Positions 4,975 to 5,092 are shown, numbered from the stretch's first letter. The stretch is 64,000 nt of DNA from Escherichia coli (GCF_016026235.1 NZ_CP065613.1), one strand, 5' to 3'. The notes: generated by a model from the sequence alone, not told the origin. A program made the numbers and translations.

Positions 4975-5092
4975 AATATATTTTCAATAAAATGAATGTT
5001 TATATCTTCATTAAAATGAAGATAAGTGGCAACTGTGAGATGTGGAAACGGCGAGGCGCTTCACATTTTTTCGGATTATTGCAAATGAGGAT

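Follow-up and report, generated by a model that had tools for sequence, protein, structure and literature searches.

Three palindromes in the yhf gene cluster

The analysis concerns a 64,000-nucleotide stretch of an Escherichia coli genome (GCF_016026235.1 NZ_CP065613.1), hereafter called the window, and in particular a palindrome located upstream of the regulator gene yhfZ. YhfZ and the php-yhf cluster to which it belongs are an uncharacterised part of the E. coli genome. The yhfZ gene (4974..4069, minus strand) is a 301-amino-acid open reading frame whose product, the presumed binder of the palindrome, carries an HTH_41 winged helix (residues 24-71) and a YhfZ_C effector domain (residues 75-301). 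In the RefSeq annotation of near-identical E. coli genomes, yhfZ, yhfY, and yhfX follow in this order, with trpS upstream and all on one strand. Residues M1, R3, and I6-G10 at the N-terminus of YhfZ are invariant among 16 orthologues, which supports the annotated ATG as the start codon. On the upstream side, a terminator scan detects the trpS intrinsic terminator (5096-5117, minus strand), in which a 9-pair stem with five G-C pairs is followed by a run of T. Thus, the yhfZ promoter is shielded from trpS read-through and lies in a self-contained promoter region.

The preliminary description of this DNA reported a perfect inverted repeat at 5004-5023, 30-50 bp upstream of the yhfZ start, with 9-bp arms separated by 2 nt. 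The sequence read there is ATCTTCATTAAAATGAAGAT. The repeat is indeed perfect, and its measured distance from the ATG (29-50 bp) agrees with that account, but the dimensions need correction. A repeat finder gives arms of 10 bp each, at 5003-5012 (TATCTTCATT) and 5015-5024 (AATGAAGATA), with 2 nt between them. In the K-12 allele (TATCTTCAAATTCCTGAAGATA), the arms are 8 bp long and the spacer is non-palindromic. Therefore, the perfection over 9-10 bp is a property of one allele, and the conserved unit is 8+6+8 rather than 9+2. This predicted operator unit, TATCTTCA-N6-TGAAGATA, consists of 8-bp arms and an A/T-rich 6-bp spacer, and it is present in three copies in the yhf cluster.

The first copy, predicted operator O1 (5003..5024, unstranded), reads TATCTTCATTAAAATGAAGATA, has the core TATCTTCA-N6-TGAAGATA, and receives the top weight-matrix score of the window (33.8 bits). 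Predicted operator O2 (4979..5000, unstranded; TATTTTCAATAAAATGAATGTT) is an imperfect copy that scores 27.9 bits and is centred 24 bp from O1; the repeat finder recovered it as a 20-nt direct repeat of O1 (D1) with a spacing of 24 bp. The additional AATGAA at 4991-4996, which had also been remarked upon, is real and corresponds to the right half-site of O2. Predicted operator O3 (3637..3658, unstranded; AATATTCATTTTTTTGAATATT; 30.4 bits) resides in the intergenic region between the yhfY stop codon (3690) and the yhfX start codon (3606), within a perfect inverted repeat with 10-bp arms at 3635-3660. Its end is 31 nt before the yhfX ATG, and its distance from O1 is 1366 bp.

The window contains 13 perfect inverted repeats whose arms are 9 bp or longer and whose spacer does not exceed 6 nt, compared with 2.0 +/- 1.3 after dinucleotide shuffling; when the arms must reach 10 bp, the counts are 7 and 0.43, respectively. 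Because shuffled sequences also yield such repeats, a single palindrome is by itself only modestly unusual and is weak evidence, whereas its recurrence is not. The majority of the 13 repeats are G+C-rich hairpins that resemble terminators or repetitive extragenic palindrome (REP) elements. Only the repeats at 3635-3660 and 5003-5024 combine A/T richness with a lack of terminator features, and both have a TTCA-N6-TGAA core. This core occurs four times in the window, compared with 1.42 occurrences expected, and three of the four are in two yhf intergenic regions. In a weight-matrix scan, only four positions in the window reach 10 bits: O1, O3, O2, and one other that scores 10.1 bits.

Orthologous promoters were compared by using 80 yhfZ loci, from one genome per species, with 981 kb of flanking DNA. 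The loci are from Escherichia, Citrobacter, Klebsiella, Pluralibacter, Trabulsiella, Cedecea, Buttiauxella, Chimaeribacter, Superficieibacter, Lelliottia, Atlantibacter, Serratia, Photorhabdus, Xenorhabdus, Providencia, Vibrio, and Photobacterium. Conservation of the palindrome in such promoters had been named beforehand as a check on its function, and a TTCA-N6-TGAA motif is found at most 130 nt upstream of yhfZ in 77 of the 80 loci. One of the three exceptions has a truncated yhfZ, and the remaining two differ in their upstream sequence. The offset of O1 from the yhfZ ATG is -50, -49, or -48 across genera, and that of O2 is -26 in Escherichia, Citrobacter, Klebsiella, Trabulsiella, Cedecea, Buttiauxella, and Photorhabdus. 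Matches of at least 16 bits to a 22-bp weight matrix (consensus TATCTTCAwwwwwwTGAAGATA) occur in the 981 kb almost only at -50, -26, and about +1316 from the yhfZ ATG, with a few lineage-specific extras. Among 34 unique enterobacterial upstream sequences anchored at the ATG, conservation is 1.76 and 1.87 bits per position in the O1 arms and 1.37 in the O1 spacer, which contains only A/T; it is 1.61 and 1.73 in the O2 arms and 0.36 in the distal upstream flank. In enterobacterial loci, O3 is nearly invariant at about +1300 to +1370 from the yhfZ ATG, and its flanks diverge.

The promoter region of yhfZ (window 4960-5075) was found in 5083 of 5426 complete E. coli genomes and is absent from the remaining 343. 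It falls into three allele classes with at least 99%, 90-95%, or 80-90% identity to the window (down to 87%), and the allele of the window is common to about one third of E. coli genomes. An alignment of representatives shows that substitutions are confined to the operator spacers, to the spacer of a CRP-like site (see below), and to the gaps between elements. By E. coli standards, this amount of polymorphism is unusual, but no half-site varies.

Several lineages carry motif copies elsewhere. In Xenorhabdus (L050-L076), an extra copy lies at -153 from yhfZ, in a gap shared with a divergent alpha/beta-hydrolase gene. In Photorhabdus (L035, L037, L041), an extra copy at about -4.5 to -5 kb is beside a gene for an EIIC of the phosphotransferase system (PTS; ascorbate/galactitol type, EIIC-GAT) and a PAS-LuxR regulator. 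In Photobacterium frigidiphilum, one contig contains two yhfZ clusters about 13 kb apart (L078, L079), and a copy at L078 5627-5648 is located about 96 nt upstream of a divergent operon for PTS lactose/cellobiose-type IIB, IIC, and IIA and DUF7916; this copy adjoins a yhfZ paralogue that lacks yhfY. Motif matches at +1457 in Vibrio, which lie within php coding sequence, were not considered to be operators.

The possibility that O1 is a chance palindrome in A/T-rich intergenic DNA might be entertained on the grounds that 64 kb of sequence should contain about two perfect inverted repeats of this kind (arms of 9 bp or more). However, chance leaves unexplained the conservation in 77 of 80 loci, the presence of three copies in one cluster, and the covariation described below, and it is effectively refuted.

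The repeat might instead act as an RNA hairpin, for example as an attenuator, a terminator, or an element that occludes the ribosome-binding site. The window allele forms a 9-pair A-U-rich hairpin, and a survey from 2010 listed yhfZ among genes preceded by "attenuators" of the bacterial interspersed mosaic element (BIME) type (PMC2965389). However, the BIME in that survey is a separate REP element nearer trpS in K-12, and a function of O1 in RNA is exceedingly unlikely. Folding is predicted to be weak (-11.2 kcal/mol for 86 nt, z = -1.8), the repeat has neither a G-C stem nor a T tract, the terminator scan makes no call, and there is no match in Rfam; RNA-based explanations were rejected on these grounds. 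In addition, the spacer is non-complementary in K-12, O1 is upstream of the predicted start site, and no compensatory changes are seen in the arms, because the arms are invariant.

YhfZ and the covariation of its proposed half-site

YhfZ is the sole protein of the yhf cluster with a DNA-binding domain. It scores 373.4 bits against NCBIfam NF041241 ("GntR family transcriptional regulator YhfZ"; cutoff 260), and thus belongs to that family. The Pfam models HTH_41 and YhfZ_C (PF14503) both match above cutoff, and the C-terminus matches YhfZ_C only. The YhfZ family comprises at least 661 clusters at 50% identity. The only solved structure, PDB 2OZZ, spans the C-terminal domain alone. In the AlphaFold model of YhfZ, a winged helix (helix-helix-helix-strand-strand, residues 2-74) is followed by a two-lobed alpha/beta domain. 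The closest PDB structures after 2OZZ are full-length LysR-type regulators and type-II solute-binding folds, with template modelling (TM) scores of 0.3-0.4. Structural neighbours of YhfZ_C include LysR effector domains, HisG, MetQ, and LAO, all of which are type-II folds. The modelled architecture fits that of a ligand-controlled regulator.

A cross-match between a GntR/UTRA protein and HTH_41 (1e-4), and weak ones between a distant member of the YhfZ family and PF00392 and to the Rv1152 family, suggest a distant relationship between YhfZ and GntR regulators at the clan level. None of the effector domains described for GntR regulators (FCD/FadR, UTRA/HutC, MocR aminotransferase, YtrA, or the AraR type-I periplasmic-binding-protein domain) is present in YhfZ.

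The recognition helix (SVG...QAALK) is invariant in 79 of 79 full-length gamma-proteobacterial copies of YhfZ. In the family, helices are mainly of two types, S-V-G and x-R-G-T. Distant members (29-38% identity) were picked by helix type before the DNA was inspected. Those with an S-V-G helix (L088, L089, L090, and L093; 33-38% identity) have TTCA-N6-TGAA upstream of their own gene. Members with an x-R-G-T helix have TACA-N6-TGTA at the equivalent place (L091, L092, L094, L095, and L097), or TACG-N6-CGTA (L096). The distant sites are 24-44 nt from the ATG in nine of ten loci, and the site in L096, placed by eye, is about 45 nt away. The 6-bp spacer is kept in these sites, is A/T-rich except in L092, and is accompanied by AAwAT-like flanks. 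More copies occur between the regulator gene and the next gene, which is a PRD gene in three cases, in L090 and L093 (TTCA) and in L095 and L097 (TACA); L091 has two copies upstream of the regulator gene.

Because the bases of the half-site change with the first residues of the recognition helix, a YhfZ-type protein is the probable binder, and this covariation is the strongest evidence obtainable here. The palindrome had been put forward as an operator for YhfZ or for another regulator of the yhf cluster. The comparison supports an operator and favours YhfZ over another regulator. The correspondence of V with TTCA and of R with TACA is a candidate recognition rule for the YhfZ family.

Regulators with look-alike sites include ArgR (consensus TGAAT-N4-ATTCA), MetR (consensus TGAA-N5-TTCA), and Fur. 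The protein that binds the palindromes might be not YhfZ but a global regulator or one encoded elsewhere, given that the sites are A/T-rich and that their TGAA/TTCA elements superficially resemble ARG boxes and the MetR site. However, TTCA-N6-TGAA is the inverse arrangement, and it differs from the look-alikes in orientation and spacing; ArgR, Fur, and MetR sites were rejected for this mismatch after comparison by eye with the consensus sequences. The motif also accompanies yhfZ homologues across phyla, to Vibrio, Photobacterium, and low-GC metagenomic contigs, the half-site changes exactly where the recognition helix of YhfZ changes, and the window holds only one 10-bit match besides the three yhf sites. 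Binding by another regulator is accordingly given a low probability.

Predicted promoter architecture and proposed regulation

A CRP-like site (5050..5065, minus strand; TGTGAAGCGCCTCGCC) is identified by consensus match only; it agrees with TGTGA-N6-TCACA at 8 of 10 positions, and its left half is perfect. The conserved form of this element is TGTGA-N6-TCnCc, and in the window its centre lies 83.5 bp before the yhfZ ATG. In 74 of the 80 loci, the centre is fixed at -83.5 or -82.5 from the ATG, with 7-9 of 10 matches. Eight of 10 core matches at any position are attained by only 5.5% of random 160-nt stretches. The half-sites carry 2.0 and 1.49 bits per position, versus 0.57 in the spacer. The yhfZ promoter appears to depend on CRP.

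A putative -35 hexamer, TTGCCA (5027..5032, minus strand), matches TTGACA at five of six positions, and its TTG is conserved at a fixed distance from O1. The putative -10 hexamer, GAAGAT (5004..5009, minus strand), is 17 bp from TTGCCA, coincides with the right arm of O1, and reads GAAGAT or GAATAT across genera. A weak -10 would be expected of a CRP-dependent promoter. From these elements, the start site is tentatively placed at about 4997/4996. In that case, the CRP-like centre would be at -60.5/-61.5 (class I), O1 at -27..-6, and O2 at -3..+18, so that O2 would make up essentially the entire 5' leader. Two of the distant loci, both low in GC, have promoters that are detected by scan and that have an extended -10: TTGACA-16-TAAACT in L093 and TTGAAA-17-TACTAT in L097. 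These promoters end 12-13 nt before the operator, which places the operator at about +6..+28. The predicted positions of O1 and O2, and of the sites in L093 and L097, correspond to repressor geometry.

Conservation in this region might reflect only core promoter elements, such as the -10, UP-like A/T tracts, or curved DNA, or else silencing of the H-NS type. The right arm of O1 is the putative -10, and the region is A/T-rich with several promoter-like hexamers. Such constraints would not account for the symmetric conservation of both O1 arms, including the arm that has no promoter role, or for the recurrence of the 22-bp palindrome at O2 and at O3, where promoter-like hexamers are lacking. They also leave out the covariation of the half-site with the regulator. 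Promoter elements or silencing are thus a very improbable explanation for the conserved palindromes.

The anatomy of the locus, its conservation, the cluster-specific occurrence of the motif, and the covariation between protein and DNA are all observed directly here. From them, we infer that YhfZ binds the three-operator set and represses its own gene cluster. We assign a probability of roughly 70% to this interpretation, which extends the observations to the binder, the start site, the hexamers, the dependence on CRP, the sign of regulation, and the inducer. A YhfZ dimer would recognise O1, O2, and O3 via its GntR-like winged helix, with one TTCA half-site per monomer across a non-contacted, A/T-rich 6-bp spacer. 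The yhfZ promoter would be a weak one, composed of the CRP-like site at about -61, TTGCCA, a 17-bp spacer, and GAAGAT. With O1 over the predicted spacer and -10, and O2 over the predicted start, RNA polymerase would be excluded or trapped when YhfZ is bound. The expected outcome is autorepression of the yhfZ-yhfY operon. O3 would act on the downstream catabolic and transport genes (yhfX-yhfW-php-yhfU-yhfT-yhfS), either as a block or by looping; it may be a roadblock to read-through, the operator of an unrecognised promoter, or a looping partner of O1 and O2. A small-molecule inducer at the periplasmic-binding-protein-like YhfZ_C domain would lift repression, and this inducer, together with cAMP-CRP under carbon limitation, would turn the promoter on. 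Modulation by the PRD protein YhfY is possible.

Mechanistically, this would be an ordinary autoregulated repressor-operator arrangement. AraR of Bacillus subtilis, for example, combines a GntR-type winged helix with a periplasmic-binding-protein-like sugar domain, is autoregulated, and has several palindromic operators. YhfZ resembles AraR in its N-terminal GntR-like winged helix and C-terminal solute-binding-protein fold, in palindromic operators that are situated at its own and at catabolic or transport gene promoters and are paired near the -10 and start (binding being predicted for YhfZ), and in repression that is presumably relieved by a substrate. However, the effector domain of AraR is type-I (LacI/GalR-like), whereas the neighbours of YhfZ_C are type-II folds. 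The operator motif likewise differs in sequence and arrangement, being TTCA-N6-TGAA for YhfZ, and the Pfam GntR model misses YhfZ. As in the lac (O1/O2/O3), gal (OE/OI), and deo systems, yhfZ is predicted to have a class-I-like CRP site near -61, a weak promoter, and an operator over the -10 and start; a further operator is 1366 bp away, within or beyond the first genes, where looping or a roadblock is possible. Those systems differ in that they use another regulator family; in the yhf cluster, yhfZ is the first gene of the operon that it would repress, and the dependence on CRP, the looping, and the oligomeric state are all predictions.

Repression by YhfZ must be weighed against a different mode of action at the same sites. 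YhfZ might bind the operators as an activator or dual regulator, perhaps with an inducer in the manner of LysR-type regulators (for example, OxyR, CbnR, BenM, and CysB), which share with YhfZ a winged helix and a two-lobed type-II effector domain within about 300 amino acids. The likeness of YhfZ to full-length LysR-type proteins, the weakness of the predicted promoter, and the spacing of two sites 24 bp apart, which recalls the recognition and activation sites of LysR-type regulators, are all compatible with activation, and an activator-dependent promoter at O3 is conceivable. We nevertheless regard activation as quite unlikely. The sites are over and downstream of the predicted -10 and start rather than at -65 and -35, the operators in L093 and L097 are at about +6..+28 of scan-detected extended -10 promoters, and the CRP-like site already fills the activator position. 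Moreover, YhfZ is not a member of the LysR family: HTH_1 (PF00126) and LysR_substrate (PF03466) have no match in the protein, TM scores are 0.3-0.4, the sites occupy repressor positions, and the motif is not a T-N11-A box.

Other observations weigh against repression by YhfZ at a three-operator set. At the promoter, GAAGAT is only a three-of-six match to the consensus and falls below threshold, so the promoter scan made no call at yhfZ. A yhfZ start site, which would lie near K-12 position 3512366, was not found in the supplements of a Cappable-seq paper (PMC4782308) or of a paper on in vitro run-off transcription (PMC10301672). Around O3, neither a sigma-70-like promoter nor a terminator was found by a simple scan, and no conserved -35 was apparent by eye; a yhfX promoter at O3 was dropped as a candidate for the same reasons. 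The A6/T6 spacer of O3 (TTCAAAAAAATGA) is almost invariant across Enterobacterales (L001-L076), unlike the variable spacers of O1 and O2, which may indicate a further constraint, for example DNA bending or a second factor. Regarding the protein, the predicted local distance difference test (pLDDT) value of the AlphaFold model is 72.7 (85-92 for the N-terminus), which indicates only moderate confidence, and the Pfam GntR model PF00392 has no match to the YhfZ N-terminus even at E<=10. The sample used for covariation is small, with 10 distant loci on short metagenomic contigs, from which P0124 and P0155 were left out. The weight matrix was built from sites selected by a regular expression, so the invariance of the core is partly built in. 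For this reason, the unbiased, ATG-anchored column conservation was computed as well, and it offsets this bias together with the 981-kb scan. Finally, the literature searched contained only incidental mentions and no description of the YhfZ operator, its regulon, its inducer, or the substrate of the cluster (RegulonDB and RegPrecise were outside the search).

The RefSeq record of K-12 has no regulatory feature annotated at the yhfZ promoter. O1-O3, the promoter model, and the predicted CRP input make the function of the cluster open to direct experiment. If repression by YhfZ is lifted by a small molecule, its identity would point to the substrate of Php, YhfW, YhfX, and YhfS.

YhfY and the surrounding genes

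The yhfY gene (3690..4052, minus strand) encodes a stand-alone PRD-like protein of 120 amino acids that is co-transcribed with yhfZ and is a possible co-regulator. Its sequence matches to PF00874 (E=0.018) and TIGR03582 (E=7e-6) are both below cutoff. The AlphaFold2 model of YhfY has a pLDDT of 94, and nearly all of its top structural matches are PRD domains, with TM scores of 0.5-0.6 and weak E-values. His48 is invariant. As with PRD regulators (the LicT/BglG antiterminators and MtlR/LevR activators), YhfY has a PRD-like predicted fold and an invariant histidine, and it is encoded beside a regulator family-wide. However, YhfY is a single 120-residue domain without an RNA- or DNA-binding part, and its PRD matches do not reach the cutoff.

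The gene order of a YhfZ-like regulator, a PRD protein, DUF2620 (YhfU), and YhfT is kept down to about 30% identity (L089, L093, L094, L095, L096, and L097). The enzymes encoded beside this regulator cassette vary, and include PTE/Php, amidase, and YhfS-like pyridoxal phosphate (PLP) enzymes. This suggests a modular cassette of regulator and transporter that serves different substrates. Some YhfZ relatives sit beside PTS genes, in keeping with PRD/PTS regulators, and one distant family member adjoins a PTS IIB-sorbose gene. A link with the phosphotransferase system is plausible.

A bolder proposal is that YhfZ and YhfY together form a previously undescribed regulatory pair, in which the GntR-like winged helix, joined to a type-II binding-protein domain, would read a simple, re-programmable half-site code (Val43 for TTCA and Arg43 for TACA). 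Such a pair would respond to a metabolite and to PTS phosphorylation, the latter via the YhfY histidine. Under its control would be a widespread module for uptake and catabolism that comprises YhfU/DUF2620, YhfT, Php, and PLP enzymes and ranges from Enterobacteria to low-GC bacteria. In this extended form, the proposal is rather unlikely.

In the window, yhfW (1216-2442, minus strand) contains a premature stop at 2044-2046, where Trp133 of K-12 is changed to a stop codon, and is otherwise colinear and 96% identical. Therefore, this strain has only a pseudogene for the cluster's putative mutase. E. coli FDAARGOS_943 (L081, NZ_CP065615.1 3918995-3931295) is 100% identical to window 4000-6300; in that genome, an insertion of the IS5 family splits yhfW, and IS1 is beside a truncated yhfU. 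In some lineages, the yhf cluster thus appears to be decaying.

Two further repeats were noted near yhfZ. A perfect G+C-rich inverted repeat with 10-bp arms (CAACAACTGC-ACGCA-GCAGTTGTTG) is found at 4134-4158, inside the 3' end of yhfZ, with the yhfY start about 80 nt further on. Either a coincidence of coding (codons for ...QQLLRAVV...) or a structure with an effect on the expression of yhfY may account for it. A G+C-rich imperfect inverted repeat at 5160-5242 (arms 5174-5195 and 5213-5234) is located just downstream of trpS and belongs to a dispersed repeat, of which E. coli genomes contain a median of 15 copies. Its place is taken in K-12 by an element of the REP/BIME type, so that the intergenic region is 289 bp in K-12 compared with 268 bp in the window.

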